This document shows, piece after piece, positions 24,818 through 39,502 of a stretch of DNA of 42,129 nt. Source of the stretch: an uncultured bacterium (lineage in GTDB: Bacteria > JAJVIF01 > JAPKYR01); contig CBDUXL010000002.1 of NCBI GenBank assembly GCA_965371155.1, positions 1-42,129 of the forward strand, given 5' to 3'. The position numbers were made by a program, and so were the translations under genes. Numbering within the stretch: the stretch's first letter is position 1; each line of letters begins with the position of its first letter. The notes beneath the pieces are model-generated. The model ran no database searches, had not been told where the DNA came from, and saw only the letters and a list, made by a program, of their open reading frames with translations.

Positions 24818-24895
24818 AACAGATCACCCACACTATACTATTCTCAAGTCAATTCAACTTGAGACCTGGTCACTCTCATCCTCCACGATTTGCTC

Positions 24896-25732
24896 CTAAA
24901 TCGCCTCGTCCGTTTCATCGACCCCATCCGCTCCGTCTTCAACGGAAACAACCCTTCCGTCCCGATGAGCCACCCAAAGCGGAGGGGGATCATTTGCATC
25001 GCCGAATGTCAAAAGTGTGAAATGGGCGGCATACTGGCGCATCGATCCGCTCCCGGCGCCCTGGGGCGCCATTTGGAAACTGACCAACGCAGTATGCGGC
25101 CGCATGTTGAAGATCTCGTATGTGAATCTCTTTATGTCCTTGTAGGTTCCGCGAACGGTCATGCGGAAGGAGTGCGTTTCTATTCCACCGGCGATTGCCG
25201 CATAATTCTCACCCTCAGTGCCAAGCTCCTGATAGAACCTGAAACTGACCAGCAGGTTCTGCATCTGGTCCATATTGTTCTCGAACATCTGCAGGGCGGA
25301 CATAATTTGGTCCAGCCGCCCCTGAAGCTCGGACGGGTCGGATGAGAAGGCCTCCTTGAAATTGGTCCCGGCTCCCGGCGCGGTAACGCCCAATATGGCG
25401 ACACCATCGGTATCGAGGTTATTGTCAGTCAACATAATGTGAATCGTGCTGAGATAGCTGGTCAGAACGAACTCGTCGGCTTCAGGGATAAGGTTGCGGA
25501 TGGTTTCCATGTCCTGCAGTTGGACCGTACGAATCTGCCTGAGCAGGTCCTTGTACCTCAACAGATCGATAAGCGCCTGGGCGATGGTGTTTTGGGTCGC
25601 CAATTCTGCCTGCCTGTTAGCGATGGTTCGAACGAAAAAGCGGTGGGCGGTCATGTTGTAGGCCACCTGCAACAGAAGGCAGACAACGATAACCACGGCG
25701 ATTTTAATTGCTATTTTCGCATATGGATTCAC
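24896..25732 (-). CDS. pilO: PilO-like protein
   Basis: N-terminal TM segment IAIKIAVVIVVCLLLQVAY, a coiled-coil region, and a C-terminal ferredoxin-like pattern HSFRMTVRGTYKDIKRFTYEIFNMRPHTALVSFQMAP. The gene order also supports the call. Confidence 0.7.
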   Translation of the reverse strand: MNPYAKIAIKIAVVIVVCLLLQVAYNMTAHRFFVRTIANRQAELATQNTIAQALIDLLRYKDLLRQIRTVQLQDMETIRNLIPEADEFVLTSYLSTIHIMLTDNNLDTDGVAILGVTAPGAGTNFKEAFSSDPSELQGRLDQIMSALQMFENNMDQMQNLLVSFRFYQELGTEGENYAAIAGGIETHSFRMTVRGTYKDIKRFTYEIFNMRPHTALVSFQMAPQGAGSGSMRQYAAHFTLLTFGDANDPPPLWVAHRDGRVVSVEDGADGVDETDEAI

Positions 25733-25762
25733 AGGTGGCTTAACACCTCCATGGCCGTCGGT

Positions 25763-26350
25763 CTAATCAGGGAACTTGACCTCCACATGAATCTGGAAAC
25801 TGGCGGCAGGACTGCCTCCCACGTTTATCCTCTGGTAGCCTGCCATGCGTATGTTGCGGAATCGCGTTGGTTCCTCAGGCGAGCCTTTCAGTCGATCGTA
25901 GGTTCTCAAGGGTCCATTGAAACCGTAGCCCCTTGACAGGCAGTCGACCACCACATCCGGCCACTTGCTGCCGCGTGAGCGACGAAAGGTCAAGTTTACA
26001 AGCCATGTGTCTTCAGGCAGGAGTCTCTCTATTTCATTGTAAATCTCCCAGTAGTCCGGAGCCTGAAGCACCATTCGAGGGATGACGGCAATATAGCTCC
26101 GAATAAAACGCGCGTTCGCCTGGACCTCAATAAACTCCTCAACCTGTTCCATACGCTCATGATTTGCCGCGGTTTTGGCTTCCAGCTCGTCCTTCAGGTC
26201 TTTGGCTTGCCTGGTTTCAGCCTGGAACTGCAGCCAGACAAAAAGCAGGGTTGCGATTAACAAGGCCGCGGCAAAAACCGGGAAGGCCTTGAACTCAGGC
26301 TCAGGCAAATACTCCTCAGGAAGGAGGTTGATTAATCGATCTCTATCCAA
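25763..26350 (-). CDS. pilN: PilN-like protein
   Basis: The conserved INLLP motif is at the N-terminus (MDRDRLINLLPEEY), followed by one TM segment FPVFAAALLIATLLFVWLQF. TTG start, with an 8-nt overlap with pilM. Confidence 0.8.
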   Translation of the reverse strand: MDRDRLINLLPEEYLPEPEFKAFPVFAAALLIATLLFVWLQFQAETRQAKDLKDELEAKTAANHERMEQVEEFIEVQANARFIRSYIAVIPRMVLQAPDYWEIYNEIERLLPEDTWLVNLTFRRSRGSKWPDVVVDCLSRGYGFNGPLRTYDRLKGSPEEPTRFRNIRMAGYQRINVGGSPAASFQIHVEVKFPD

Positions 26351-27560
26351 CCTGATGAATCCCCCTCAAAGCCAGGCCCACGGCACAACTGAAGTCCGGG
26401 GCGAAATCGCGTACCAGGTCTTCTCGAATGCCGCTCTCAGCCACACTGAGACCCGAGAGCGGGTCGCCGGAAATAACAGGTATTCCCAGCTTTTCCGACA
26501 TCGATCTAATAAACTGCTCCCCGTAAGGGAAGTAGCCATCAAGGACCCCGAACGCGATCTCAGACCGCTCCTTGCCGAAGGACTGGCCGTAGCGGATGGT
26601 GTTCAGGGTCTCATCGACAAGCTCAGTCATCAAGGGATTCAGCCTGGCAAGTTCATCACGATCCCCGATCCCCTCACGCGCCAGAGCCTCATCCCGCGCG
26701 GACATCTCGGCCGAAAACGGGTCCTCACCAAACGACCCAAACTCCAGATCCTCTTCACCGCGCCGCCCGATGCCGAGGTCTTCCTCCTCGGATCCTACAC
26801 GGGCAGCATGTTCCGCCATTCCGTCCGCGCCCAGGCCCGCGTCGAACAGGTGCTTCTCGCCGAGCGCGTCCACAAATCCAACGCTTCCAATCGGAATCGA
26901 GCGGAGTATCCTGACCTGCCCATCAAATACCACCGTCAGGTCGGTGCACCTATCGTTGATGGTTATGAGAATGTACTCTCCACCGCGCTCCTGAATCTTG
27001 GGGGACCGCCTCTCGGCGCGATGCGCCGCAACAGGTGTGAGATCCAGAGCTGCTGGACGCAGCCCCGCCTCCAGCATTGCCTCAACCAGAAGACCCAACG
27101 GCTGTTTCTGGGCCGAGAGGATGAGAACCTCGACTTTTTCCGTGTTGTCATCTTCGCTGACGTATGTGCGGAGGATCGCGTAGTCCAGCACATTGTCGCC
27201 GGTTCCCGACGGGAGGCTGGCCTCGGTCTCGAACAGGATTGCTTTCCTGAGCTCGCGGATAGGCATGTTAGGGAGGTTGATAGTGCGGGCGATGGTTTCG
27301 GATCCATCCACGGCGGCCAGCGCGATTTTGGTTCTGATGCGGTTGGCCTGGATCATACGAGCAAGTGCGGAGGCCAGAGCTCCCGGGTTCTCCAGCCGGT
27401 TGCCGATATAGGCCTCCGGCGGTGTTTCCTCCCATAGTATCTGGGTAACCAGGGGCTCTCGCGCGGTTCGCTCTATCTCGACAATCTTCACCTGCGCAGG
27501 CCCCACATGGATACCCAGCGCACGCCTGGGGGCAACATTTATAAACGGTAACGGTGTCAC
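26343..27560 (-). CDS. pilM: PilM-like actin-fold protein
   Basis: About 400 aa with an N-terminal phosphate-1-like LGIHVGPAQVKIVEIE. It lies directly upstream of, and overlaps, the INLLP-motif pilN. GTG start per the ORF track. Confidence 0.75.
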   Translation of the reverse strand: MTPLPFINVAPRRALGIHVGPAQVKIVEIERTAREPLVTQILWEETPPEAYIGNRLENPGALASALARMIQANRIRTKIALAAVDGSETIARTINLPNMPIRELRKAILFETEASLPSGTGDNVLDYAILRTYVSEDDNTEKVEVLILSAQKQPLGLLVEAMLEAGLRPAALDLTPVAAHRAERRSPKIQERGGEYILITINDRCTDLTVVFDGQVRILRSIPIGSVGFVDALGEKHLFDAGLGADGMAEHAARVGSEEEDLGIGRRGEEDLEFGSFGEDPFSAEMSARDEALAREGIGDRDELARLNPLMTELVDETLNTIRYGQSFGKERSEIAFGVLDGYFPYGEQFIRSMSEKLGIPVISGDPLSGLSVAESGIREDLVRDFAPDFSCAVGLALRGIHQVG

Positions 27561-27847
27561 CTGTGTGTCTCCGTCATGCCTCTCGATTGTTCTTGCGGGC
27601 AGCTTACATCGCCCGCATAAGAAAATAAAACGTTTACCCTAGCTCCAGGGAAAACGCCCTAATCTATGCCAGTCACCCTCTTTCGGATGGCTCACAATAC
27701 TATAACAGGCAAGCAGTGTCAAGCAGGATACCGGCCGGGGAATCCCCGTACGACCCCCCAAATCGTAAGCACCGGTATGCTGTTTTCGCCAGCTGACTCC
27801 TCGCAACTTCCTCACGCTCCCCATTCTGAACAAATAACCTGGAATAT

Positions 27848-28468
27848 CTAGTCTTCCGCCCCGCCTCTACGGGATACGAAGAGGTTAAAAAGCCTGAAAT
27901 CCGTTCCCTCAGGGCCCCTTCTCGGTCGGACCGCGACCCAGCCGGAATCCGGATTGGTCCCTATAGCCAGCAAATCACGCTGGAAGTTGTACGGGTGGAA
28001 AATAATAAAATATGTACTCGCCCGAGAAGTGGTCGGGTCGTACGGATTGAACTCGACAATTTCAACTGCATAATCCTGTGTTATACCGAACAGGTAGCCG
28101 GTGGACTCATCGTATTCATCTTGACTGCCGTCTTCAATTGCCCTGAAGTAACCCGGCAGATAGTCCTCCGTCACCATGAAATCCACCAGTTCCTTTGGGG
28201 ACTGAAATTCCTCATCCAACCCCCACTGCGGGTACTCAAGATAATGGTAATAATACATTTCATACCCGGTAGCGAACGAATCCAGCGCACCAAGAGCATT
28301 GGTCTCCACTACCTGAGTCCGCATACGACCGATCAGGGCGAAGGAAATGGCGGCCAGGATGGAGATAATACCGCAAACGACAAGAAGCTCGGCGAGAGTG
28401 TATCCTCTCTTGCTGTTTGGCGGTAAAGGGAAAACCCAATGGTCTCTATATCGACTCAATATCTCCAA
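27848..28468 (-). CDS. Type IV pilin-like protein, tandem paralog 1 of 12 (window order)
   Basis: ...NSKRG|YTLAELLVVCGIISILAAISFALI, a prepilin cleavage/methylation motif with Glu5. There is no ATG after the upstream stop. In-frame TTG codons lie at 28468 and 28459, so the start is uncertain. Confidence 0.7.
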   Translation of the reverse strand: MEILSRYRDHWVFPLPPNSKRGYTLAELLVVCGIISILAAISFALIGRMRTQVVETNALGALDSFATGYEMYYYHYLEYPQWGLDEEFQSPKELVDFMVTEDYLPGYFRAIEDGSQDEYDESTGYLFGITQDYAVEIVEFNPYDPTTSRASTYFIIFHPYNFQRDLLAIGTNPDSGWVAVRPRRGPEGTDFRLFNLFVSRRGGAED

Positions 28469-28490
28469 ACCTTGATTCTTTCCAACCCGG

Positions 28491-29075
28491 CTAGTCAGGC
28501 AATATGTAGATGCTGATGCTGTATCGCCCGGTCCGTCCGATCTTCCTGGGCAGCGGACCCGGGTAGTTGCTGAACATCCTGGGTCCCTGAATGACCACCA
28601 GTCCCCGCTTCGCAATTGACCCCTCGTAGGGAATCATCGCAATGGCATAGGTGTTCCTGTAGCCCATACCGGGAACAACGCCGTAATCGGCGGGATAGAT
28701 GCTCATCCGATAGCCCCTGGCGAAGAGATCCCGTCTGTCATGAAGTTCCCTGGAGTACCTGTGGGGCACGAGGCTGTAAAGCCTCAGTTGATCCCAGAGA
28801 GGCTCCGGGGCAGAGAATTCCACGTCTTCGGTAATCGTCCCATCCGATAGGTAGTTGGGATACCTATGGCCGTACTGCGCGTAGTAGTTCTCGTAGGCCA
28901 TGCTCATCATGTTGAGCGCCCTGATTGCCTCGACCTCATACACCTTCTCACGACTTCGTCTGAGAAGGGCGATAGGCATAGTGGCGATGATGAGCAGAAG
29001 CCCGGTCACTATGAGCATCTCCACGAGCGAATAACCCGCTGAGGGCCGTATGTCGTTATCCGAACGATGCAACAT
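28491..29075 (-). CDS. Type IV pilin-like protein, tandem paralog 2 of 12
   Basis: MLHRSDNDIRPSAG|YSLVEMLIVTGLLLIIATMPIALL. Confidence 0.8.
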   Translation of the reverse strand: MLHRSDNDIRPSAGYSLVEMLIVTGLLLIIATMPIALLRRSREKVYEVEAIRALNMMSMAYENYYAQYGHRYPNYLSDGTITEDVEFSAPEPLWDQLRLYSLVPHRYSRELHDRRDLFARGYRMSIYPADYGVVPGMGYRNTYAIAMIPYEGSIAKRGLVVIQGPRMFSNYPGPLPRKIGRTGRYSISIYILPD

Positions 29076-29096
29076 CTTCCGACACCATATCCCGCA

Positions 29097-29543
29097 TCAC
29101 CTGACAGGTTCCCAATTGTCATACATCGGTATGCCGTCGTCCGAGATTATGAACGTACTCAGACGGAGAGTATGATCAGTTGGATATGCGTAAACGGTGT
29201 AGCGCTGGGCCTGATAGGCGGTAGCCATGGCGATAGAGTAGTTCTCGATAAAGAAGTGCTTGTGTCCCTCAGCTCCCCAGCCGGAGTATGCCCGGGGCAG
29301 GTAGTCATCCAGTTCCGACCAGTTATCGGTATAGGCGAAGTTATCACGGTAGTACATCTCCTCAGCATCGGTGAGGCTTCTGAGGGCTTTGACACAGGCC
29401 GCTTGCAGCGCGCTTTTCCGGGAACCGGCCAGGGATGGAATCGCGATGGCAGCCAGGATACCGATAATGCTGGCAACCACGAGGACCTCGACAAGCGTAA
29501 AACCCAGCGAATCGCGTTCCTCATTTTTCAGGCATCTCAACAT
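29097..29543 (-). CDS. Type IV pilin-like protein, tandem paralog 3 of 12
   Basis: MLRCLKNEERDSLG|FTLVEVLVVASIIGILAAIAIPSL. GGAGG lies 6 nt upstream of ATG 29543. The ORF-track start is 29624. Confidence 0.8.
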   Translation of the reverse strand: MLRCLKNEERDSLGFTLVEVLVVASIIGILAAIAIPSLAGSRKSALQAACVKALRSLTDAEEMYYRDNFAYTDNWSELDDYLPRAYSGWGAEGHKHFFIENYSIAMATAYQAQRYTVYAYPTDHTLRLSTFIISDDGIPMYDNWEPVR

Positions 29544-29631
29544 TTCTTGCCTCCGCACCCGGTACTCAGCCGGGCGCCGCTGCGTCCCTTGGTTGGACGC
29601 TTGCTTTCCTTTTTCCCCGCCCACCCGCTAT

Positions 29632-30132
29632 TTAATCCTTGAACAAGGTCGAGAAAAATTTGCCATGATTGTGCGAATCCAGAATGCTCCCGTCGCATGT
29701 CACTGCGTACGTCCTCAAGTGCCAGATGGACCTTTCAGCCGGGAAAGCCACCGCGGTAAAAGATTGGCGATGCTCGGGCACCAGGAAAAAAATAGTGTAG
29801 AGATTGGCGATCGGAGTATCTCTCGGATTGGACAGGTCATCGTCTTTGTCATAACCCGGGTCCACCAGATCCTCTTCGCGCTTCATCTCCTCCCAGTACC
29901 CGTACTCGCCGTGGCGCTGATAGTAAAGGACCTCATTCTCGCCGATGTTCTTCATGGCGGCGATCGCGCGCGTCTCGAATGCGATGCGCTTCGCACCCCG
30001 GGTGCTCACCACAGCCATCGATGCGAGGATAACAATAATGATGGCAACCATCAATACCTCGATCAGCGTGAAACCCTTCTGTTGAGCGCCCTCATCGAGT
30101 CCAGGCTCTCTCATGTCCTCAGGATCTGACAT
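29632..30132 (-). CDS. Type IV pilin-like protein, tandem paralog 4 of 12
   Basis: MSDPEDMREPGLDEGAQQKG|FTLIEVLMVAIIIVILASMAVVS. There is a purine-rich GGGAAGGAAAG upstream of ATG 30132. Alternative ATG at 30162. Confidence 0.8.
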   Translation of the reverse strand: MSDPEDMREPGLDEGAQQKGFTLIEVLMVAIIIVILASMAVVSTRGAKRIAFETRAIAAMKNIGENEVLYYQRHGEYGYWEEMKREEDLVDPGYDKDDDLSNPRDTPIANLYTIFFLVPEHRQSFTAVAFPAERSIWHLRTYAVTCDGSILDSHNHGKFFSTLFKD

Positions 30133-30163
30133 CACTTTTCTTTCCTTCCCGCCGTGTGCCATC

Positions 30164-30649
30164 TCAGTATGGTGACCAGTTTGCCAAGGTGTGCACTATT
30201 TGCACGCCTCCGGAATCCGTAATCACGAAGGTCTTCAGCTCCGGGATTCGCGGGACGGCGAAGACCGTATAGCTGTGAACGGAGAAATTGGTGATGGGCG
30301 GGCGGGGACCGCCACCACCGCCGCGGATCCAGTGAAGCGAGTAGTTCTTGACAAACACGTACTGGTCCGCGTCTTGCTCGTAGGCGCGCGGCAGGTAGGT
30401 CCTCGCCAGAGCGCTGAACCCGAGGGCATAGCGCCCATTGTCGATGTAGAAAATCTCCTGGGCGCTCGCAATTGCCTTAAGGCCCGTTGCAGCGCCGGTT
30501 TCGAGTGTTTTGTAGCGCGCCTGGGACATGCTCGCGATTGCCAAAGTGGAAAGGATCGCTATCAGAGTAGCCACCAGGACCATCTCGATCAGGGTGAATC
30601 CTGATTCGTCCTTGTCAGCGCGCTCGGGTTTATCTGGATTCCGGTTCAT
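30164..30649 (-). CDS. Type IV pilin-like protein, tandem paralog 5 of 12
   Basis: MNRNPDKPERADKDESG|FTLIEMVLVATLIAILSTLAIASM. Alternative start at 30673. Confidence 0.8.
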   Translation of the reverse strand: MNRNPDKPERADKDESGFTLIEMVLVATLIAILSTLAIASMSQARYKTLETGAATGLKAIASAQEIFYIDNGRYALGFSALARTYLPRAYEQDADQYVFVKNYSLHWIRGGGGGPRPPITNFSVHSYTVFAVPRIPELKTFVITDSGGVQIVHTLANWSPY

Positions 30650-30709
30650 GGTTGTCTTACCTTTTCCCGCCACGACATTTACAGCCGGTCTAATGGTCGG
30701 GAACCAGGC

Positions 30710-31222
30710 CTAAATCGGCCTCCACTGCGTTATCCCTTGTGAATATCTCCGACCCTCGACAACTCCCCTGTCGGTAATTCTGAGTTCCAGCCAGTCGCTG
30801 ATTTCGTACCGATGGCGATAGATGCCCTTCGCCCTGATCGAGTAGCGCTGCGGGGTAATCGGGTTCACATACCAGAAGCACGTGAAGCCCTGGACAAACG
30901 CAATTGAGCGCTCCTTGATGGGCGAATCGGAGAGAACGAAGTCGGGATCGATGTAGCTCGGTTGAAGGCCGCCAAAGTCGAGCGCGTAATAGCCGTTGTC
31001 GTTGTAGAACGCTTCCAGGGCGGACGCCAGTTGTTTCATCTGATGCATGCCCTGGGTTTCCAGCGCCCGTTGCCGCGCCTTACGGAATGAGGCAAACCCG
31101 AAGGTGGCGATGACGGCGATAATCAGCGCCACGGTCAGCACCTCGACCAGCGTGAAACCGGTTTCATGCTTCTCTTCGACCTTCAATTTCTCTATCTCAG
31201 CTATTTCAGCCATAATGGCCAT
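30710..31222 (-). CDS. Type IV pilin-like protein, tandem paralog 6 of 12
   Basis: MAIMAEIAEIEKLKVEEKHETG|FTLVEVLTVALIIAVIATFGFASF. The ORF-track start at 31315 overlaps the upstream gene, so ATG at 31222 or 31213 is more likely. Confidence 0.75.
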   Translation of the reverse strand: MAIMAEIAEIEKLKVEEKHETGFTLVEVLTVALIIAVIATFGFASFRKARQRALETQGMHQMKQLASALEAFYNDNGYYALDFGGLQPSYIDPDFVLSDSPIKERSIAFVQGFTCFWYVNPITPQRYSIRAKGIYRHRYEISDWLELRITDRGVVEGRRYSQGITQWRPI

Positions 31223-31259
31223 CCCGGGCCCGCCCTGACATTCAGTATGATATAGAGCA

Positions 31260-31754
31260 TCAACGAGGCACCCAATTGATGCCATCGCGTGTCTGCTCGA
31301 CTGTTCCGTCCTCAAATATCCTGAACGTGTGCAGGTTCAATGAGTTGCCTGCGTCCGGGAATGCGACGTAGGCAAACCCGTAAGTGAAATCCTTGAAAGT
31401 ATCTCTCACGAAAAAGTGGATGGAGTAATGTTTCGCCATGCGCTCGCGATCGGTGATACCGTGCTTTCGCCAGTGAGAGTTGACGAACTCTCGCTGGCGG
31501 AGACCCTCAAAGGAGGTGAAGTGCCTGAATACGCTTCTGTACCCGATCTCAGCCGAGCCGAGCGCGTTCAAAGCCTTAATTGCCCCAAGCTCGTAAGCGG
31601 ATCGTTTCACCCCGCTCAATTGAGGAAGCGCCATGGCCACGATCACCGTGATAATCGAAACCACCAGGAGGATTTCAAGCAGCGTGAATCCGCGACCTTC
31701 CTCTTTTTCATCCGACCTTTCGACCGGGATCTCATTCAGCATATTTCCGCGCAT
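31260..31754 (-). CDS. Type IV pilin-like protein, tandem paralog 7 of 12
   Basis: MRGNMLNEIPVERSDEKEEGRG|FTLLEILLVVSIITVIVAMALPQL. Confidence 0.8.
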   Translation of the reverse strand: MRGNMLNEIPVERSDEKEEGRGFTLLEILLVVSIITVIVAMALPQLSGVKRSAYELGAIKALNALGSAEIGYRSVFRHFTSFEGLRQREFVNSHWRKHGITDRERMAKHYSIHFFVRDTFKDFTYGFAYVAFPDAGNSLNLHTFRIFEDGTVEQTRDGINWVPR

Positions 31755-31811
31755 GGTTTTTCTCCGTCTGTCGACAAACCAGCTATCAAACGCAACTGCC
31801 GATTGCCCGCC

Positions 31812-32348
31812 CTAGTATGGCGTCAGGCGATCGTCCTTCGTGATAACACCGCCCGGATCGAGGTAAAAGGTGCTCAAACCCAGATGTTGCTGGATCGGGA
31901 CCGCCATGAGCACAAAGTTCTTGCTCCCCCATCTATCGGGTGCGGATGAGCTCCATCCGCCGAAACCACCGCCGGGTTCTTCATCGGACGCATCCGGGGC
32001 GTAGCCCCAGGCGAACAGGCGATATCCCTTGATGAACTGATTCTCGGCATGCCGGATGTAATAAGTATCCGGAAGGAACCGATCTATCTCCCGAAAGAAC
32101 AGCCTGCTTGGCTCGGTAGTGTGCACGGGATAGAATCCCATCTCTCGATAGTACAGCTCGAACGCCTCTTGAATAACCTTCAAACCCTTGACCGCGCCCG
32201 CTTCCTTCACAACCTTCTCGACCTTCCGTGTCGCCGGGATTGCGAGGACGGTAATAAGCGCTATGATGCCGATTACAACGAGCACCTCCAGCAACGTAAA
32301 GCCTCGTTGGCGTCCCGGACTTGAGTTTCTTACAGTATTCATTTTCAT
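31812..32348 (-). CDS. Type IV pilin-like protein, tandem paralog 8 of 12
   Basis: MKMNTVRNSSPGRQRG|FTLLEVLVVIGIIALITVLAIPAT. Confidence 0.8.
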   Translation of the reverse strand: MKMNTVRNSSPGRQRGFTLLEVLVVIGIIALITVLAIPATRKVEKVVKEAGAVKGLKVIQEAFELYYREMGFYPVHTTEPSRLFFREIDRFLPDTYYIRHAENQFIKGYRLFAWGYAPDASDEEPGGGFGGWSSSAPDRWGSKNFVLMAVPIQQHLGLSTFYLDPGGVITKDDRLTPY

Positions 32349-32376
32349 GTCCCAGCCGTAAGAATTGTCCTGTCAC

Positions 32377-32868
32377 TCAGTAAATCGCAATCGGCCACAG
32401 CGTATTTGTGTCACGTACGACGCCGTCATTGATGATAAGAAACGTCTTGAGATCGAGACCGCGTTCGATCGGCCAGGCAACGATAGAGTAATTCTGCGGG
32501 TACTCGCCAATATTAATCAATTGTATCGAGTAGCCCTTGATGAAGTAACCGCGCCGTCCCGAAAGTCTGTTATACGCCTTCGCATCAATTGCATCACACC
32601 GCCTCAAGTCGTGCCACTGGTCATGACCGGCGGTGTAGCACTGGTAAACCTGGTAGTACAGCTCCTCCGCCTCAGCCAGTTGTTTGAGACCGTGAACCGC
32701 CCCGGTCTCAAGCGCATTCCGCCTGGCATGCTGGAGGTTGGGAATAGCCATGACGGCCAGAATGCCTATCAGGCCGACAGCGAGCATGATCTCAAGCATC
32801 GTATAACCACGAGCATCCTGATGGTCCTCGGATTCAAGTGGCGTCTTTATTTCCTGCGAATCAGCCAT
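32377..32868 (-). CDS. Type IV pilin-like protein, tandem paralog 9 of 12
   Basis: MADSQEIKTPLESEDHQDARG|YTMLEIMLAVGLIGILAVMAIPNL. Confidence 0.8.
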   Translation of the reverse strand: MADSQEIKTPLESEDHQDARGYTMLEIMLAVGLIGILAVMAIPNLQHARRNALETGAVHGLKQLAEAEELYYQVYQCYTAGHDQWHDLRRCDAIDAKAYNRLSGRRGYFIKGYSIQLINIGEYPQNYSIVAWPIERGLDLKTFLIINDGVVRDTNTLWPIAIY

Positions 32869-32911
32869 GTCGTTCTCGCCGGTCGTTCGGTATCGCCGGC
32901 ACCCGGAGTCG

Positions 32912-33427
32912 TCAGTAGATCGTAACCGGCAGCCCGTTGACTTCCGCGCCCTCCCTGACAGGCGGCATCGCGACCAGCCTGTCGTTGTAGGTGCTTCCCG
33001 TTATGAACTTGTTGATGTTAAAAGTCCGCAGGCCCATTCTATTATAGCCGACGGGGGTCGCGATTACCTGATAGTATAACGAATTCGGAGTGTTTGGAGT
33101 GACAAAAGCCAGCGAGTACCGATCGATGAATGGCAGGACGCTCGCGGAGGTCACAGGGCTGCGGAACTCCCACTTCGTGGAGTAGCCTTTCGGAAGCAAG
33201 TTGGCGTCCACCAATTCCATGAAATCACCAAATCTCTCGTAGTCCGAGTAGAACCGGCTTTCAGCAAGGGCGATACGGTTCAGCCTCTGGATCGCGTTGT
33301 CCTCGAGCGCTGCCCGCCTCGCATGCATGTAAGACGGCAGGGCGAAGCTGGCAATAATGAGAATGATAATGCACACCGAGAGAATCTCGATAATGGTCCA
33401 GCCGTCATTTCTCCCAAGAATACCCAT
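32912..33427 (-). CDS. Type IV pilin-like protein, tandem paralog 10 of 12 (Trp at predicted +1)
   Basis: MGILGRNDG|WTIIEILSVCIIILIIASFALPSY. Confidence 0.75.
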   Translation of the reverse strand: MGILGRNDGWTIIEILSVCIIILIIASFALPSYMHARRAALEDNAIQRLNRIALAESRFYSDYERFGDFMELVDANLLPKGYSTKWEFRSPVTSASVLPFIDRYSLAFVTPNTPNSLYYQVIATPVGYNRMGLRTFNINKFITGSTYNDRLVAMPPVREGAEVNGLPVTIY

Positions 33428-33457
33428 TGACTGTCTATCAGCCTGATATCTCCATTG

Positions 33458-33955
33458 CTAGAATACCGGCCTCCCGGTATCGAGCCATTTCACAACACCG
33501 TCCTCTTCGACCTTCATGCTCCTGAGGCCGGCAATCCCGCCCATAGGGGTCCATCGCGGATACCATAAGTAAGGCTCGTCCACCACCGGCTCCGCAATGA
33601 TCTCAAAACCTCCCCCCTCCTTGTCTTTGTTGAACTCCAATTTGTATTCCAGGATAAACGCCGCTCGTTGGTAATGAAGCCGGTCGTCGTCTTCCAGGAA
33701 ATCCCAATCGACATAGCCTTCTCTCTGAAGGTCGTCGAAGTTCGCATACTCCCCAAGTTCGCGGGAGTACAAGTCCTCCCAGATAGCAAGCTGTGCAAGC
33801 CTCTGGGCGCAGTAATGCTCCTTGGCACGACGCTTGACTTCGAGGTACTGCACGGTGCCGACGGTGACGAGAATCGCCACGATGGTGGCCACGATAAGCA
33901 CCTCCATCAGCGTGTATCCTCTTTCAGACTTGTATCTATTCACTGTGCCTGACAT
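33458..33955 (-). CDS. Type IV pilin-like protein, tandem paralog 11 of 12
   Basis: MSGTVNRYKSERG|YTLMEVLIVATIVAILVTVGTVQY. ATG 33955-33953 overlaps the upstream stop 33957-33955 (TAATG coupling). The ORF-track start is 34012. Confidence 0.8.
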   Translation of the reverse strand: MSGTVNRYKSERGYTLMEVLIVATIVAILVTVGTVQYLEVKRRAKEHYCAQRLAQLAIWEDLYSRELGEYANFDDLQREGYVDWDFLEDDDRLHYQRAAFILEYKLEFNKDKEGGGFEIIAEPVVDEPYLWYPRWTPMGGIAGLRSMKVEEDGVVKWLDTGRPVF

Positions 33956-34500
33956 TATCGCCCTCTCCACGGTCCTAAATCTCCTTCTTGACGCCTGTAC
34001 CACGTCTTCCAATAGACCTCCCCGTCCTCCTGCATATAGAAGGTTCTCAATTCGGGAGTGTGCCTGAGCGGAATCGCCATGATCAGATATTGGAAGGTGT
34101 CCGGCTCCGATTCATCGTCCTTGCTGTTTCGCATGAATTCCAGGCGGTAATATGGGATAAATGCGTTGACCGTATGCCGTCTCTCATCGGACTGCTCGTA
34201 AAAGTCCGGAACCAGGTTGGCATTCTTTAAATCGAAAAACGTGGCGTAGGTGCCCTCCGGATTCAGGGTCGGGTCGTTTGAGAAACGAAAAGTGTGCTCC
34301 AGTCTGGACAACTGTTTCAGTCGCTGCACGCAGGTTTCCTCGATCGCGAACCTCTTTTGGAACTTCATCATCGCCTGAGTAGCCATGACTAGAATGATCA
34401 TAAGTGCGGTGACGCCGAGGATCTCAATCAGCGTGTAACCGGTCTGGGGCCCGCGATCGCGACTTTCAGGAATTTCGTATGTTTCTCGCTCCGTATCCAT
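33955..34500 (-). CDS. Type IV pilin-like protein, tandem paralog 12 of 12
   Basis: MDTERETYEIPESRDRGPQTG|YTLIEILGVTALMIILVMATQAM. Confidence 0.8.
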   Translation of the reverse strand: MDTERETYEIPESRDRGPQTGYTLIEILGVTALMIILVMATQAMMKFQKRFAIEETCVQRLKQLSRLEHTFRFSNDPTLNPEGTYATFFDLKNANLVPDFYEQSDERRHTVNAFIPYYRLEFMRNSKDDESEPDTFQYLIMAIPLRHTPELRTFYMQEDGEVYWKTWYRRQEGDLGPWRGR

Positions 34501-34545: not shown

Positions 34546-35247
34546 TTATTTCCCGAATGATTCCGCCTCCACGTCAGCAAAATCACCAGGCGGAAATTTT
34601 ACCCCGCCGTTGGGGTTACGCAATGTTGCGATGTACTCGCGCTGAACGATCGTGCCTCCCCGCTCGATGCTCAAGGTCATCGAGATTCTCTTAACCTCGG
34701 GAAGCTGATCGGTGAAGTTTCCCTCCGAATCAGCGTAGTCGAACATAAGATTTGCGATACCTGATGTGAGACTGGTGGTGCCCTGCTCCTTAATGGTCCC
34801 ATTCTCTCTCACCACCACCACGGTTCGCATCAAGTAGCTTTCCCTGATGAACGTACCGTACTTTAAGATGAACACGCCGTACCTGACCTTATATCGCACC
34901 CAGATCTCTTCGCCGTCCGGACCCGGATAACCGAGAATAAGGTATAAAGGGTTTGTGGTTTCTCGAAGGACCATCGCACCCGTTTCGTCATGCGTCTCCT
35001 CGTTGTAGAACCAGACAGCGGACTGCACATCGCTGATAAACTGGTTCATTACACACTGGTGACCGAACTGCACGTTTTGGTCATTGGTCATCCTGTTCAA
35101 AGCCCCGAGACCCTCCAGAAGCCCCGCGACAATGCCGGCTGCAATCAATGTGGTCAGTCCGACAACAAGCAGGGTCTCCACCAGAGTGAATCCACGCTCG
35201 CTGAATCCCAGTTTTTCTTGTCCAATATTCATCCTGAATTCTGTCAA
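34546..35247 (-). CDS. Minor pilin-like protein (PilW/GspJ-like, 233 aa)
   Basis: ...EKLGFSERG|FTLVETLLVVGLTTLIAAGIVAGLLEG. The TTG start overlaps the upstream stop (TTGA). Alternative ATG at 35232. Confidence 0.7.
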   Translation of the reverse strand: MTEFRMNIGQEKLGFSERGFTLVETLLVVGLTTLIAAGIVAGLLEGLGALNRMTNDQNVQFGHQCVMNQFISDVQSAVWFYNEETHDETGAMVLRETTNPLYLILGYPGPDGEEIWVRYKVRYGVFILKYGTFIRESYLMRTVVVVRENGTIKEQGTTSLTSGIANLMFDYADSEGNFTDQLPEVKRISMTLSIERGGTIVQREYIATLRNPNGGVKFPPGDFADVEAESFGK

Positions 35248-36824
35248 TCCAAACCTACCCAGCGCACTTCAATCGCGTCTATGGCGAACCCATCGTAACC
35301 GTCATCGTAAGTGTTTCCTGAATCATTAGATTTGAAATGGATCACCAATGTGTCTCCCTGGATCCAGTCGGTCCAGTCACCGTTAATCGGGTACGGGTTT
35401 CCGCCGGCATCCTCCGGCGTTATCGTATCGCCGGGATCGGTGGGAACAGTAACCAAACGTCCCCTGATTTCGCTCGCACCGGGAACGGTAAACGGGAATG
35501 TGAAATCCTCGTTGTCTTCGAAAACAAGGTGTGACGGGAAGTCACGGAGATTAGGTAATCGATCCACCCTTGTCGGAGCGTTGCGATAGAAGCTCGTCTG
35601 GAACCATGCAATCCCGCGATCGTCATCCTGCCACCAGGTTTTTGTCTGCCACTCTTCGGAGCGAGGATTCGGCGCCACAGGGTGGAACTCCAGATCCACC
35701 CGGATAAGGTCTCCATGCCCGAGCCTGACCGACTCCACATCCGGAGCGATGACGTATGTCCGTCTGCCTAGATCGAACCCCGATTCCAGGTAGTTCGGGA
35801 AATACATTATCACGTTATCAAACTCTCCACGCCAGTCCTCGAGGTAGTAGGTCGCCTCGTTATAGCCATAAATCTCGATCTCAGCCACATAGGGCCAATG
35901 ATAATCCTTGTCAAAATCGGCGTAGGTATCGATTTTGTATACGCCGATGATGCCGGCTTCCAGCGGCGCCTCGGGCTTGTCGTAAATCATATGGATCCCG
36001 GATGAAGAATAGCCCAGGTTCTTTCCGAACGCGAGTGGGTTTGCATCCTGGAACCACGGATCGAAGACGTCCCCGACGCCGAGTATTCCGTCGGACCAGA
36101 AGAAATCGAAGTTGCGTTGCCAGATGTCCAGCTCGTGGGGAAGATAGTCGAAATCCTCATCCGGTACACCGAGAATCTCGGTCATGTTGAACCTGTTATC
36201 ATAAAGAATCCGACTGATGTAGGTCAGCTTAGGGAAAGCGCAATAAATGTACTGGTAATCCTTAGGACGGTTGTCTCCACCCCCTTCCGGATCGTCGCTG
36301 GGTCCCCCGGCGCCCGGATCCCCGCCCCCGATTGGGTCGTCTGTCACAGGGCCTTCATCACCACGATAGGCCAGCGCGTTCTCTTTTCCCATCCATCGGC
36401 TGTTCTCGTTGGCGCGCTTCCCATCGAAAGCATGGTGCCTGGAGAACCTGTCTCCAGGAGTGGGGAGATCATACGACGCCCCAACTGTGACGACCCCGTC
36501 GAATTCCGTGCTGATTGCGAGATCGCTGAAATAGTCGGGAACATCCTGAACGTACCCGACTTCGCCAGTCTTGAGGAACGGAACCCGTCCGAACTCGCTC
36601 GCCCGGAGGCTCTCGAACTCCAAACCGGCGAGGTAAACAAGACTGCCCTGATCGATAGCCATGCGGGACGTTATAGTGGAGGTCGAAAGGGCCATCAGGA
36701 ATCCCACCAGGGCTATACCCAGAACAACCGTGGATATAAGCACCTCGAGCAGGCTAATACCCCGCTGGTTGCGGACAGCGTCCAGGAGCCTGAAACCTCG
36801 TTTGTATGTACAAGAATCTGTCAT
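35244..36824 (-). CDS. Large minor pilin-like protein (PilV-like N-terminus, 526 aa) with a C-terminal CUB-like module
   Basis: ...VRNQRG|ISLLEVLISTVVLGIALVGFLMAL. The C-terminus reads GDTLVIHFKSNDSGNTYDDGYDGFAIDAIEVRW. A Gly/Pro/Asp loop GGGDPGAGGPSDDPEGGGD is also present. Confidence 0.7.
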   Translation of the reverse strand: MTDSCTYKRGFRLLDAVRNQRGISLLEVLISTVVLGIALVGFLMALSTSTITSRMAIDQGSLVYLAGLEFESLRASEFGRVPFLKTGEVGYVQDVPDYFSDLAISTEFDGVVTVGASYDLPTPGDRFSRHHAFDGKRANENSRWMGKENALAYRGDEGPVTDDPIGGGDPGAGGPSDDPEGGGDNRPKDYQYIYCAFPKLTYISRILYDNRFNMTEILGVPDEDFDYLPHELDIWQRNFDFFWSDGILGVGDVFDPWFQDANPLAFGKNLGYSSSGIHMIYDKPEAPLEAGIIGVYKIDTYADFDKDYHWPYVAEIEIYGYNEATYYLEDWRGEFDNVIMYFPNYLESGFDLGRRTYVIAPDVESVRLGHGDLIRVDLEFHPVAPNPRSEEWQTKTWWQDDDRGIAWFQTSFYRNAPTRVDRLPNLRDFPSHLVFEDNEDFTFPFTVPGASEIRGRLVTVPTDPGDTITPEDAGGNPYPINGDWTDWIQGDTLVIHFKSNDSGNTYDDGYDGFAIDAIEVRWVGLD

Positions 36825-36842
36825 AAACCAAACTGATCTATC

Positions 36843-39422
36843 TCAATAACCACCCAGATTCCGGAATCGGAATGCCCTGGTTGGGTCGTCGGATCTGTCA
36901 TAGTACTGGTCGTAGGCGAGCATTGCGTATTCTTCGTAGTATTCCTTCACTTGAAGAATGTCGCCGTTGACGTAGCCGCAATGGTTGATCTCGAATCCCG
37001 AATGCCCGGCATTATCATCCCCGTCCCCGATCAGTTTCACCTGAGCGGTTGTACCGGGCACAAGCACCCAGCCGTAAGTGGCGTTCAAATCAATAACTGT
37101 TTCAGGTGAGGTTCCCAACGGATACTCAGGACCTGCAGCGCCCGGTCCGCCCCCGGGCTGCTCGCCTCCGGTGGGGTCATCCGGATTGCCGGGTCCTCCC
37201 ATATCCGGGAAATCGTCGGTGCTATCGGAAACGAGAGTTGCGATCAGGATTCCGTCGATATCATACACCTCGATTCGATCGCCCGGGTCGAGGTCATAAC
37301 TGTAACGGTCGAAATGCAGTCCGACCACCAATGCGTTCTTGTTCGTGTACCACCACTCCGAAGTCTCGAAAGCCTGATCTCCGAAGGCGGGATAGCTCAC
37401 ATTCGACGGGTAGTACACATCCGACCGGATAGTCGGCGGGGTGCTGTCATCATCATGGCCGTCGGATGTTGTGTATTCAATGGCGTCGATTCGATAGCCG
37501 AAGTTCTCGGGGGATACCTCATGGGCATCCTGCGCGTCGGAGATGAACTCGATCTCCAGCCTGTCGAAAATGCCGCAGTCGATAGGGTCGACGGAAAGAG
37601 TCCTGATGTCGCGGTACTGGAGGGGATTTGAAATAATGAACGGCCCCCAGAAACTGTCTTCATGAACATAATTAATTGTGAACCCCGCGATAGTCAGGGA
37701 TATCATGTCATTATTGAGAGGTCCACCGGAGCCGACAGTTAGATTCGTGCACTCGGAGAAGTAGACCTTCCAGTTGGTGAGCGTCCCCAACCCGCTCGGA
37801 TCGGTGGTATCCGGAACCGACGGCTGCCAGATGGTCATATAGCCGCCGATGTTGGTCGTCAGAGGCAAATACAGCGGTCCACCCATGTCAGGGATAGTGT
37901 AGGTGCCGTCGTTGGCGCCGAGAGAGGCAAGGTGCGGGGTCTGCACCAACGGCTGCTCTCTTCTCTGCCAGTTGCCGTTCCTATCGGTGTACTCCATCGC
38001 CTCGATCTTGAACCCGTAGTCGGGGAGGCCATCCGTGTCGAAATTGGCCCCTCTGTGGAGCAGGAGAACAAAGCCCAAGGGGACCGTCGTATCCATGCGA
38101 TTGATTACCGGTGAGAAACCTCCCGGAGGCAGCGGATTTCCAGAGTCGTAAACCTCCACTGCACCCACCCCCATTGGCTCGGAGGCATTGAAAAGGTACA
38201 GCGTGTCGGCAGGATCAAGCGAGCAGAAATCCGAAAACTGGATGGTCATCTGCTGGGCTACAGCCATCGGGGATGCCGGGGCAGCCTGGAACTCGCCGTG
38301 GATGACCATGACGTTCAGGTTGGCGGCAGTGGTGACATCGATTATGTGATCGTAAGGATGCGGAGTCTCATAGTAAGACGGAAAAGCGTCGTAGTCGAAT
38401 TTGTATCTGACGCCGCTCACCCTGAAGCCGTAGTCCAGTCCGTCCGCCGGAGGGGCCGGTCTTGCCGAAAGATATAAGCCGATTGTAGTGGTGAGAAAAT
38501 AATCTGTGAAGACCTCACTAAGTACGTTCTCAAAGCCGCTATGGCTTTGCGGCGGCGGATTCTGGAATTGACCGGCACCAGCAAGCCACGGGGAAATGTA
38601 AAGAGTGTCGCCGCCGTGGATCTGGACCCTACCGATTTTGGCCATCAGAGCGAGATGGGTCAGGTTACGATAAGGATGTCGAGGGTCCTGCTGGTAAGTA
38701 ACCGACCACGCGCGAGCGATGTCGGGCGGGTACGGGTGCTCGGTCTGGATATACGGGTACGGTCCAAGGCGTGACGACTCAGTGATTCCCGCCTCGCGGA
38801 CATCGTAGTTCCATTGCACGTTTGGGTATTCGCCACGAAGGAAACTGAACAACGCGGTATCGCCATCGGGTTCGTCCACCTCGCCTACCCCAAATACCAC
38901 CAGGTCGCCCGTCGATTGCCTCTGAGCGAACTCGTACCCCGGGAAATCCTCACTGAATGTGAGATCATCGTGGTATCGATAAATCGCATTGTCCCTGTCG
39001 CCGGGGACAATATCGGTCTCGGGATAATACGCGCTTATGCTGGTGTCAACGCTGTAAGCCGTTCGGAGCGTTGTAACCGGGAAATCCTCGATTTCTTCCT
39101 CGTAGGATACACCCTCGGTCAGAAGTGTGACTTTCAGCAGGTCCTCGGAAGTGGTGGAGACCTCAAAGGGGTCGATATAACCCGGGGTGATGTACTCCGG
39201 GTCCACCAGGAGGCCGTAAGCGCCCTCATGCATGGCTCCCTCAGCAACCTGGCGGGCGACAAATGAGTGCCGATGTGTGTCGGTGGATTCAAGCGACTTT
39301 ATGCTTACTGCGAGGGTTGTGTAGGCAAGAACGGCGAAGATGCCGGCGATTATGAGCACGACGATCAATACGACCCCTCGTTCACCAGAAATCCTCCTAT
39401 CAAGTTTTACAGGAATCGGCAT
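36843..39422 (-). CDS. Giant PilX/GspK-like minor pilin (about 860 aa, no Glu5) carrying four CUB-like modules
   Basis: MPIPVKLDRRISGERG|VVLIVVLIIAGIFAVLAYTTLAVS, with a hydrophobic N-terminal helix but Val rather than Glu at +5. Module ends are DYGFRVSGVRY, DYGFKIEAMEY, NFGYRIDAIEY and HSGFEINHCGY. Module starts are TEHPYPPD, TPHPYDH and YPSNVSYP. The ORF-track GTG at 39482 lies only about 10 nt from the predicted sigma-54 transcription start, so ATG 39422 is preferred. Confidence 0.7.
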   Translation of the reverse strand: MPIPVKLDRRISGERGVVLIVVLIIAGIFAVLAYTTLAVSIKSLESTDTHRHSFVARQVAEGAMHEGAYGLLVDPEYITPGYIDPFEVSTTSEDLLKVTLLTEGVSYEEEIEDFPVTTLRTAYSVDTSISAYYPETDIVPGDRDNAIYRYHDDLTFSEDFPGYEFAQRQSTGDLVVFGVGEVDEPDGDTALFSFLRGEYPNVQWNYDVREAGITESSRLGPYPYIQTEHPYPPDIARAWSVTYQQDPRHPYRNLTHLALMAKIGRVQIHGGDTLYISPWLAGAGQFQNPPPQSHSGFENVLSEVFTDYFLTTTIGLYLSARPAPPADGLDYGFRVSGVRYKFDYDAFPSYYETPHPYDHIIDVTTAANLNVMVIHGEFQAAPASPMAVAQQMTIQFSDFCSLDPADTLYLFNASEPMGVGAVEVYDSGNPLPPGGFSPVINRMDTTVPLGFVLLLHRGANFDTDGLPDYGFKIEAMEYTDRNGNWQRREQPLVQTPHLASLGANDGTYTIPDMGGPLYLPLTTNIGGYMTIWQPSVPDTTDPSGLGTLTNWKVYFSECTNLTVGSGGPLNNDMISLTIAGFTINYVHEDSFWGPFIISNPLQYRDIRTLSVDPIDCGIFDRLEIEFISDAQDAHEVSPENFGYRIDAIEYTTSDGHDDDSTPPTIRSDVYYPSNVSYPAFGDQAFETSEWWYTNKNALVVGLHFDRYSYDLDPGDRIEVYDIDGILIATLVSDSTDDFPDMGGPGNPDDPTGGEQPGGGPGAAGPEYPLGTSPETVIDLNATYGWVLVPGTTAQVKLIGDGDDNAGHSGFEINHCGYVNGDILQVKEYYEEYAMLAYDQYYDRSDDPTRAFRFRNLGGY

Positions 39423-39502
39423 GCTCAATCTTGCCTCACGGTTCCGAGGGGCGCGAAGATGCAGCACCTTCCGCCGCTCCACGATGGAACCAGGTCGAAA
39501 AG

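Follow-up and report, generated by a model that had tools for sequence, protein, structure and literature searches.

Modular minor pilins carrying divergent CUB-type modules and a CBM32-like module at a type IVa-like pilus locus of an uncultured bacterium

We analyzed a stretch of 42,129 nucleotides (nt) from an uncultured bacterium (GenBank assembly GCA_965371155.1, contig CBDUXL010000002.1; hereafter the window), focusing on three adjacent genes that encode pilin-like proteins of 879, 526, and 233 amino acids (aa). A first-pass annotation, made from the sequence letters alone, had described the 879-aa protein as a giant minor pilin with four modules that show the order of conserved elements known from CUB domains. 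It had also pointed out that the 526-aa protein ends with the same signature, and it had suggested that such proteins may form an adhesive or ligand-binding pilus tip that replaces PilY1. Here, we examined these proposals using family alignments, profile comparisons, structure prediction, and related genomes. The results lead us to a reading in which the two large proteins would be modular minor pilins that together equip the tip of a type IVa pilus, a retractile one, with an adhesive head.

Gene organization and distribution

The three genes lie head-to-tail on the minus strand (Table 1), and the coordinates and lengths of their open reading frames (ORFs) agree with the first-pass annotation. 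The end of the 879-aa gene is separated from the start of the 526-aa gene by 18 nt, and the 233-aa gene overlaps the stop codon of the 526-aa gene by 4 nt. Since Met21 is the first residue both in the homologues and in the gene call of the database, the real product of the first gene is more likely the 859-aa protein.

Table 1. Position and basis of assignment of the features discussed in this study; nucleotide positions are those of the window.
Feature	Position	Strand	Basis
Gene for giant minor pilin, putatively of PilK/GspK/PilX type	36843..39482	(-)	ORF call, 879 aa from GTG 39482; 859 aa from ATG 39422
Leader, hydrophobic α1 helix without Glu5, small pilin-like β-sheet domain (aa 21–235)	38778..39422	(-)	Sequence, GspK/PilX_N matches, AlphaFold2
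CUB-like module 1, aa ~242–367, TEHPY ... GDTLYIS ... YGFRVSGVRY	38382..38759	(-)	hhalign, pLDDT 72–92
CUB-like module 2, aa ~368–502, TPHPY ... ADTLYLF ... YGFKIEAMEY	37977..38381	(-)	hhalign versus module 1
Module 3, aa ~503–680, larger β-sandwich, TPH ... FGYRIDAIEY	37443..37976	(-)	hhalign pooled, pLDDT ~90
CUB-like module 4, aa ~681–842, with insert aa 757–791 (nt 37110–37214)	36957..37442	(-)	hhalign, PDB profile search
Conserved C-terminal tail (aa 843–879), candidate in-cis closing β-strand of the pilin domain	36846..36956	(-)	Column conservation
Gene for 526-aa modular minor pilin, PilV/GspI-like N terminus, Glu5	35244..36824	(-)	ORF, Pfam N_methyl
Gly/Pro-rich linker before the CBM32-like module, 526-aa protein, aa 153–185	36270–36368	(-)	
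Central CBM32/F5-8 type C (discoidin, galactose-binding-domain-like) module of the 526-aa pilin, aa ~186–415, predicted fold	35580..36269	(-)	Foldseek
C-terminal CUB-like module of the 526-aa pilin, aa ~420–526, GDTLVIHFKSNDSGN...GYDGFAIDAIEVRW	35247..35567	(-)	Family profile, hhalign
Gene for 233-aa minor pilin with Glu5	34546..35247	(-)	ORF, N_methyl 0.0027, synteny
Pilus context block	15757..34500	(-)	Pfam and NCBIfam scans
12 small pilin genes, downstream of the 233-aa gene	27848–34500	(-)	
PilM	26343–27560	(-)	Pfam/NCBIfam
Three unassigned genes	Within the context block	(-)	
1666-aa AMIN-PilQ-like secretin, PilQ/GspD core	18795–23795	(-)	Pfam/NCBIfam
PilT/PilU ATPase	15757–17085	(-)	TIGR01420 1.9e-116, above curated cut-off

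The 879-aa protein has 24 full-length homologues with 45–56% identity, and the 526-aa protein has 30 homologues that are encoded on the same contigs as the 879 family. A HMMER search with the 879-family profile over 1.84 billion representative proteins returned 13 relatives at E ≤1e-10. A relative occurs in 12 of 185,579 species-level genomes, all of them metagenome-assembled genomes (MAGs) that carry the submitters' labels Planctomycetota bacterium or bacterium, and the family is confined to uncultured sediment MAGs. We refer to the source bacterium as Planctomycetota-like.

On every sufficiently long contig, the gene order is identical, running from a UbiA-like gene through genes for a 497-aa protein and the 879-, 526-, and 233-aa pilins to 12 small pilins and PilM. 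The 233-aa gene is syntenic in seven related loci. The 12 small pilins have 1:1 orthologs in the same order in six related genomes (L002, L003, L005, L008, L010, and L012), with 40–88% identity, and are less divergent than the giant pilins. Because this order is identical in the relatives, we regard the genes as real and co-inherited, forming one operon-like unit; a gene-calling artefact was ruled out by the full-length homologues together with the synteny in 12 genomes.

The pilin parts of the three proteins

After the Gly of ...GERG, the 879-aa protein continues with VVLIVVLIIAGIF, which begins VVLIV, so that position +5 is occupied by Val and not by Glu. The consensus of the 24-sequence family alignment in this region is ERGxVLITVLIIATIFAVLAY. 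A Gly at −1 followed by a hydrophobic helix is the arrangement of a class III signal peptide. The NCBIfam GspK model matches aa 34–84 with an E-value of 0.0034, far below the model cut-off, the Pfam PilX_N model matches 4 of the 24 homologues, and the 879-family profile matches PilX_N/DUF7305 proteins through positions 5–80 with E-values of ~1e-4 to 1e-3. Each of these links is weak, and they are concordant in pointing to the apical-subunit class. The N terminus is thus PilX/GspK-like and lacks Glu5, as had been noticed on first inspection, and the absent Glu5 fits a PilK/GspK/PilX-type subunit that is apical and assembled first.

The other two proteins have retained Glu5. The N terminus of the 526-aa protein reads RG/ISLLE and matches Pfam N_methyl at 2.7e-5, next to a weak match (0.016) to the PilV model TIGR02523; that of the 233-aa protein reads RG/FTLVE and matches N_methyl at 0.0027. 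Glu5 and the Gly at −1 are conserved in homologues. Hence, the designation as minor pilins, giant in the case of the large proteins, holds for all three N termini. A PDB profile search with the 233-aa family matched solved pilins by the N-terminal helix only; this protein is a candidate third member of a tip trio.

In the AlphaFold2 model of the 879-aa protein, a helix at residues 13–72 is followed by β-sheet, and both large pilins show an α1 helix of 50 to 60 residues packed on a small sheet. At its other end, the 879-aa protein has a 37-aa tail that reads ...[DE]Yxx[DE]YxxLAYxxYYDR[ST]...[AR]FRxLGxx. The column conservation of this tail (0.66) equals that of the folded modules, which in turn are conserved as strongly as the pilin domain. 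By analogy with CpaL and GspK (PMC13533445), the tail is a candidate for a β-strand that would close the sheet of the pilin domain in cis.

Known pilins are matched by the N-terminal ~50–80 residues only, and the PDB profile searches find no pilin globular domain. This would be expected if the proteins were not filament subunits and the pilin-like N terminus were a mere membrane anchor for periplasmic or cell-surface CUB/CBM (carbohydrate-binding module) proteins. We consider such an anchor very improbable, given that the three genes come first in an operon of 15 pilin genes, in which the 4-nt overlap between the 526- and 233-aa genes couples translation and the synteny is strict, that the long α1 helix is packed on a β-sheet as in pilins, and that Glu5 and the Gly at −1 have been conserved.

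The repeated modules

In the 879-aa protein, the pilin domain is followed by ~600 residues with four modules and by the conserved C-terminal peptide. The 526-aa protein consists of a Glu5 pilin part, a Gly/Pro-rich linker, a central module discussed below, and a C-terminal module. The four modules were found where the first-pass annotation had put them (aa 245–361, 372–499, 514–671, and 690–838). Among the 24 homologues, the HPY motif is invariant in modules 1 and 2, only its His is invariant in module 3, and GF/GY...Y ends each module.

To compare the modules, the family alignments (24 sequences for the 879 family and 30 sequences for the 526 family) were cut into modules and the resulting profiles were compared using hhalign. 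Module 1 aligned with module 2 at a probability of 92.4% over 117 columns, and module 4 aligned with the last 107 residues of the 526-aa protein at 95.2%, in keeping with the shared signature that had been read from the sequence. The pooled profile of modules 1 and 2 aligned with the pooled profile of module 4 (insert removed) and the 526 C terminus at 94.2% (E 1e-7, 94 columns). Negative controls, comprising both pilin N-domains and the middle region of the 526-aa protein, gave at most 0.5%. In these alignments, the three motifs of the first-pass annotation come into register: a strand with (H)PY, one with LDPGD-x-[LI], and a last one with YGF-x-[VI]-x-x-[VIM]-x-Y. By these comparisons, modules 1, 2, and 4 and the 526 C terminus, that is, four of the five modules, demonstrably make up one domain family as judged from profile alignment. 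The proposal that the motifs are true repeats could have failed at this point, and it did not.

Module 3 stands further apart. Compared with single modules, only its last strand matched (34–57%), and compared with the pooled profile of all other modules it reached 81.6% over 114 columns. Module 3 is probably a divergent CUB copy with insertions. BLASTP self-comparison of the three proteins revealed no repeats and only shared Gly/Pro-rich stretches.

AlphaFold2 predicted β-rich modules for aa ~250–680 of the 879-aa protein, with predicted local distance difference test (pLDDT) values of 80 to 93; values for module 4 were about 60 to 70. All modules were predicted to be all-β, with six to nine strands called in each.

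Two stretches rich in Gly, Pro, and Asp occur in the large pilins, one at aa 757–791 of the 879-aa protein, where it interrupts CUB module 4, and one at aa 153–185 of the 526-aa protein (Table 1). They share the consensus GGPxNPDxPxGGxQxGxGPxAGGP and are 52% identical over 19 aa between the two proteins. Although AlphaFold2 predicts disorder for these stretches, their column conservation is close to that of the folded modules.

Relationship to CUB domains

The CUB fold is a ten-stranded β-sandwich (jelly-roll) with two conserved disulfide pairs (four Cys), and CUB domains are known mainly from animal extracellular proteins. The Pfam CUB model (PF00431), which the first-pass annotation had named as a check on its assignment, did not match the window proteins or any of the 54 family members (24 + 30 homologues) at E ≤1. 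No Pfam model of any kind matched the 879-aa protein.

Further information came from profile searches of the PDB. With the 526-family profile alone, the best matches were MASP-3 and MASP-1 CUB1, followed by the CUB domains of C1r, Kremen, and MAp19, with weak E-values from 0.016 upward. A profile combining module 4 (insert removed) and the 526 C terminus matched CUB5–8 of cubilin at 4.3e-11, MASP-3 CUB1 at 6.8e-6, and MASP-1 at 1.2e-5. PCPE-1, TSG-6, MASP-2, C1s, and enteropeptidase came next, and all of the 25 top matches were CUB domains. Zero matches were obtained in the PDB with the whole 879 family, and one chance match with modules 1 and 2. When the CUB-module profile was used to look for further homologues, four fragments belonging to the same families were all that came up. 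We also considered a PPC, a P-domain, or a generic CBM identity for the repeats and rejected these, all significant PDB matches being CUB domains.

Below the 13 true relatives, the HMMER search described above yielded three non-pilin proteins (P0070, P0071, and P0074) with four to eight tandem S-x-H-P-Y ... W-G-F repeats, one of which is recognized as Pfam CUB at 5.8e-14. A profile was built from 15 repeats of these three proteins and compared with the modules by hhalign. Module 1 matched at 96.7%, module 4 at 97.3%, and the 526 C terminus at 97.5%, with controls at or below 0.5%, and pooling module 4 with the 526 C terminus raised the match to 98.5% (E 3e-15). Module 2 alone reached just 11% and is linked to the bacterial repeats via module 1; for module 3, the match was confined to the last strand. 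When the bacterial repeats were added to our own-family profile, the PDB match to MASP-3 improved to 1.7e-8. Of the three repeat proteins themselves, one also contains a trypsin-like peptidase, and another ends in a zinc ribbon. As the Pfam CUB model recognizes one of the three, this bacterial CUB-repeat subfamily appears to be under-annotated.

The absence of Cys pairs noted at the outset was borne out. The canonical CUB pairs are missing, as each module has zero to two Cys residues, none of them at canonical columns; the bacterial CUB repeats likewise lack the canonical Cys. A whole-chain Foldseek search with the 879-aa model listed the CUB1-EGF-CUB2 segments of MASP-2 and C1r among the most probable matches (E 0.04–0.05), and nothing fell below 1e-3, which we ascribe to a multi-domain geometry that defeats the search.

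In terms of motif order, the modules share with CUB domains (MASP-1/2/3, C1r/C1s, cubilin, PCPE-1, TSG-6, and the bacterial repeats) the succession (H)PY, D-x-[LIV]-x-[LIV]-x-D, an S-D-G/x-S/D-x-N loop, and G-F-x-[LIV]. They differ from these domains by having no canonical Cys, by lying below Pfam detection, by being fused to a pilin, and by long insertions, among them additional strands in module 3 and, in module 4, a Gly/Pro-rich loop of 35 aa. Judged from profile similarity, the modules are cysteine-free, divergent CUB-superfamily homologues outside the reach of the Pfam model; we do not describe them as Pfam-defined members because the Pfam CUB model finds none. The CUB relation originally suspected thus stands for modules 1, 2, and 4 and for the 526 C terminus, on the basis of profiles and PDB matches, while the Pfam model remains silent and module 3 is only probably CUB. 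The predicted folds did not prove to be foreign to CUB-like jelly-rolls.

The central module of the 526-aa pilin

The first-pass annotation had recognized the CUB signature at the C terminus of the 526-aa protein and had overlooked a further module in its center. Foldseek comparison of this region with the PDB gave 55 matches at E ≤1e-3, with probability 1.0 and target template modeling (TM) scores up to 0.77. All 55 were CBM32 or F5/8 type C relatives, such as Clostridium CBM32, a chitosan-binding module, fucolectins, the galactose oxidase N-domain, and APC10. The pLDDT of the model in this region is about 70 to 90. The Pfam model F5_F8_type_C (PF00754) reached just 1 of 30 homologues, with an E-value of 0.049, and gave no match above threshold, which is why we call the module CBM32-like in fold only.

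The predicted fold is shared with CBM32/F5-8 modules such as NanJ CBM32 (2v72), DD1 (4zy9), and eel fucolectin (1k12), with Foldseek probability 1.0 and target TM scores of 0.69 to 0.77, whereas the sequence identity is 8 to 16%. Since ~220 residues of the 526-aa protein align to targets of ~135 residues, the module has large insertions. According to the structural model, then, the central module is CBM32/discoidin-like in fold only. A CBM32-like fold is a typical carbohydrate-recognition module.

A putative Ca2+ site

In animals, Ca2+-binding CUB domains bind ligands through the Ca2+ site. The first-pass annotation had suggested looking for Ca-binding residues. We mapped the modules by alignment onto the sequence of MASP-3 CUB1, taking E49, D57, D102, and S104, plus a conserved Tyr, to be the Ca2+ ligands of MASP-1/3. 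In module 4, the E49 column holds D/N in 20 of 22 sequences, the D57 column D in 22/22, the D102 column D in 22/22, and the S104 column D in 20/22. The CUB module of the 526-aa protein has E/D in the E49 column (21/30), D in the D57 column (30/30), D/N in the D102 column (29/30), and S in the S104 column (13/30). Modules 1 and 2 have Gln and Ser, respectively, in the E49 column; both retain the Asp corresponding to D57, and their D102 and S104 columns are not conserved. Such residues are thus found in module 4 and largely in the 526 CUB module, and not in modules 1 and 2. From these alignments, a Ca2+-dependent binding site is plausible in module 4, possible in the 526 CUB module, and unlikely in modules 1 and 2.

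Lacking the acidic set, modules 1 and 2 may therefore be spacers. This raises the question whether the modules are mainly structural, for example, a rigid stalk or spacer, a surface for bundling pili, or a plug for the 1666-aa secretin, with no specific external ligand. A stalk would suit modules 1 and 2, the CpaL middle region is partly dispensable for piliation (PMC13533445), and the giant pilins are more divergent (45–56% identity) than the small ones. A purely structural role nonetheless seems unlikely to us, considering the acidic site conserved in module 4 and the 526 CUB module, the CBM32-like fold, which typically recognizes carbohydrate, and a conservation of the modules that is as high as that of the pilin domain.

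The surrounding pilus machinery

The filament machinery shares the strand of the trio and comprises 12 further pilin genes, PilM, a PilQ-like secretin, and a PilT/PilU ATPase (Table 1). PilM and an AMIN-bearing secretin are type IVa pilus traits. Because a PilT/PilU ATPase, PilM, and an AMIN-PilQ-like secretin are present, the gene content is that of a type IVa-like pilus capable of retraction. Within the window, we recognized neither an assembly ATPase of the PilB type nor a gene for a PilC platform protein.

The machinery resembles in some respects that of a type II secretion system (T2SS). For the secretin, the GspD and PilQ models give virtually equal matches (4e-36 versus 2.8e-36), several of the small pilins match GspG best in the NCBIfam/Pfam scans, the N terminus of the 879-aa protein matches the GspK model, and the lack of recognized PilB and PilC genes in the window adds to this. 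In a T2SS-like pseudopilus, the trio would be a GspK-GspI-GspJ tip, with CUB and CBM modules that would serve to contact substrates for secretion or to control the opening of the giant secretin, and not for adhesion outside the cell. We regard this as quite unlikely. A retraction ATPase of the PilT/PilU family is encoded that scores above the curated cut-off, PilM takes the place of GspL, and the secretin has an AMIN domain; moreover, GspK carries an α-domain and not chains of β-sandwiches (PMC8179133).

Several features of the neighboring genes deserve mention. The AMIN domain of the 1666-aa secretin covers aa 77–151 and the PilQ/GspD core aa ~1247–1641, and the ~1100 residues in between have no family assignment. 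In the PilT/PilU ATPase, the family match begins at aa 93 and is thus preceded by ~90 extra N-terminal residues, and a 379-aa ORF without family match (16946–18085, minus strand) overlaps the ATPase gene by 140 nt. The 12 small pilins, of 163 to 255 aa, follow consecutively after the three large ones. Fifteen distinct pilins as a fixed set in one operon are unusual and point to a heteropolymeric filament or to a system with several filaments.

Directly upstream of the 879-aa gene lies a gene for a 497-aa polytopic membrane protein (39902–41395, minus strand), a placement that is kept in synteny (L001–L005 and L007). The protein has a weak match to a putative glycosyltransferase family (E 0.007) and no solved relative by sequence. 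It is adjoined by a gene for a UbiA-family protein (41408–42127, minus strand), of which the best solved relative is a decaprenyl-phosphate phosphoribosyltransferase (1.8e-16). In Pseudomonas, TfpW glycosylates pilins via a lipid-linked D-arabinofuranose route (bioRxiv 10.1101/2020.04.19.049825). Because the UbiA-like protein and the 497-aa protein form a pair that resembles this route, the pilins of the locus may, by analogy, be glycosylated.

The PilY1 question

The defining feature of PilC/PilY1, which does not belong to the pilins, is a C-terminal β-propeller (IPR008707). Scans with Pfam and NCBIfam found no PilC/PilY1 match (PF05567/IPR008707) in any scanned ORF of the window. The earlier statement that PilY1 is absent thus holds for the scanned ORFs of these 42 kb and does not extend to the whole genome.

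The sole β-propeller protein near the locus is a predicted lipoprotein of 896 aa (10243–12933, minus strand), with an LIGC lipobox, ~550 unassigned residues, and a C-terminal PQQ/BamB-like propeller. A relative with 26–31% identity lies ~4 kb upstream of the pilin operon in L002 (1546–3183) and L003 (1994–2854). We did not adopt this lipoprotein as a cryptic PilY1, as it scores as PQQ/BamB-like only and matches no PilY1 model.

A conventional PilC/PilY1 could nevertheless be encoded elsewhere in the genome, in which case the giant pilins would add binding specificities and not replace it. Our view is limited to 42 kb, PilY1 genes can lie outside the main pilus locus, and the 896-aa propeller lipoprotein has relatives near the pilin operon. 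The PF05567-type search was negative for this lipoprotein as well, the 12 related loci have no additional large conserved gene in the flanks of the trio, and the conserved C-terminal tail of the 879-aa protein is an arrangement described for filaments without tip adhesins. On balance, we consider a conventional PilY1 beside the giant pilins rather unlikely.

Discussion

Taken together, we propose, with a probability of roughly 0.6, that the two large proteins (879/859 and 526 aa) belong, as modular minor pilins, to a type IVa pilus that can retract, and that they form an adhesive tip head. Filament assembly is primed by minor pilins, which remain at the tip and have a Glu5-less K-type subunit on top (PMC8179133, PMC13533445). 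Here, the 879-, 526-, and 233-aa pilins would prime assembly as a complex and so come to lie at the pilus tip, where the complex would display a multivalent head of five CUB-type modules and one CBM32-like module. The CBM32-like module would bind glycan, and at least CUB module 4, and partly the 526 CUB module, would bind ligand through a Ca2+ site. Retraction by PilT/PilU would then pull the cell to the substrate or the substrate to the cell. In this way, the tip head would do the job that a separate PilC/PilY1 adhesin does in proteobacterial type IVa pili.

Several observations weigh against this proposal. The CUB assignment lacks both a Pfam match and a significant whole-chain structural match, and modules 1 and 2 may be spacers. 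The identity of the 526- and 233-aa proteins as I or J subunits is not settled by the NCBIfam and PDB profile matches. The structure predictions covered monomers, and in the monomer model the C-terminal tail is undocked and disordered (pLDDT <50). The K-like gene comes first, unlike the near-universal I-J-K order (PMC13533445). Finally, a PilY1 gene could lie elsewhere in the genome.

A more specific and decidedly speculative version of the adhesive-tip proposal may be considered, which draws on the kinds of modules present, the retraction ATPase, the taxonomic labels that submitters gave to the related MAGs, and analogy. Polysaccharide-(dextran-)binding, pili-like fibres have been seen on Planctomycetes (PMC5394234). 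The 15-pilin filament could be a glycan-fishing pilus, the tip of which would capture polysaccharide or glycoprotein particles that retraction would reel to or through the 1666-aa secretin. The Ca2+-type site of CUB module 4 would act as a binding or release switch, like the Ca2+ site of PilY1 in retraction. If true, which we think improbable, such a pilus would give a molecular identity to the Planctomycetes fibres (PMC5394234).

With regard to significance, the adhesive-tip proposal would extend the modular-pilin principle to a diderm, type IVa-like pilus, in which two core priming subunits would have become a multi-domain binding head. The 879-aa protein is a natural test case for the 2026 "β-strand addition" model, with ~600 putative adhesin residues between the sheet and the conserved C-terminal peptide and with no PilY1 among the scanned ORFs nearby. 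Because the family is tiny and confined to uncultured sediment MAGs, the direct impact concerns pilus evolution and substrate attachment or harvest and not medicine.

Comparison with known systems

A survey of pilins with grafted adhesive modules counted >1,200 such proteins, which fall into 264 architectures (Raynaud et al. 2021, PMC8179133). The 879- and 526-aa proteins fall within the definition of modular pilins, as they combine a pilin N terminus with CUB-type and CBM32-like modules that are not specific to pili. In the available part of that survey, CUB (IPR000859) is absent from the list of 264 architectures, F5/8 type C (IPR000421) occurs once, and some PilY1 proteins are described as carrying F5/8 type C modules (PMC8179133). 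Our literature search found no paper joining "minor pilin" with "CUB domain".

In Streptococcus sanguinis, PilB has a vWA module and PilC a concanavalin-A-like lectin module (PMC8179133; PMC9934059). These modular pilins share with the present ones grafted binding modules that are not pilus-specific, a probable location at the tip, and the lack of PilY1 (here, among the scanned ORFs of the window); their lectin-type modules bind glycans. The present system differs in its diderm host and type IVa-like machine (PilQ-like secretin and PilT), in the nature of the modules, which are CUB-type and CBM32-like, in having up to four of them in tandem, and in two core minor pilins being modular at once.

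The 879-aa protein has its closest counterparts in filaments without PilC/PilY1, in which the sheet of a PilK homologue is completed in cis by a last strand from the same protein, in many cases preceded by a very large insertion (PMC13533445). Such homologues are Caulobacter CpaL/TadG, Thermus ComZ, PilK of the Vibrio competence pilus, and T2SS GspK (Ellison et al. 2026, PMC13533445). A Glu5-less subunit, presumably apical in the present case, a very large insert after the pilin domain, a conserved extreme C terminus, and no PilC/PilY1 nearby are common to all of them. In contrast, the insert of the 879-aa protein is made up of four CUB-type modules (~600 aa) and not of an α-domain, a β-solenoid, or the CpaL middle region. 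Our monomer model does not show the C-terminal strand docked, and the K-like gene precedes those for the putative I/J partners.

The role we propose is shared with PilC/PilY1, namely that of a large tip adhesin of a retractile pilus, with a modular binding part (N-terminal in PilY1) and a possible Ca2+ site. The difference is that the binding modules are here fused to minor pilins and that the IPR008707 propeller is lacking among the scanned ORFs of the window. Modular pilins and PilK homologues with built-in adhesin inserts are thus already known. What is new is the presence of CUB-type modules on pilins, their tandem multiplicity, and the simultaneous modularity of two core minor pilins in a diderm type IVa-like pilus.

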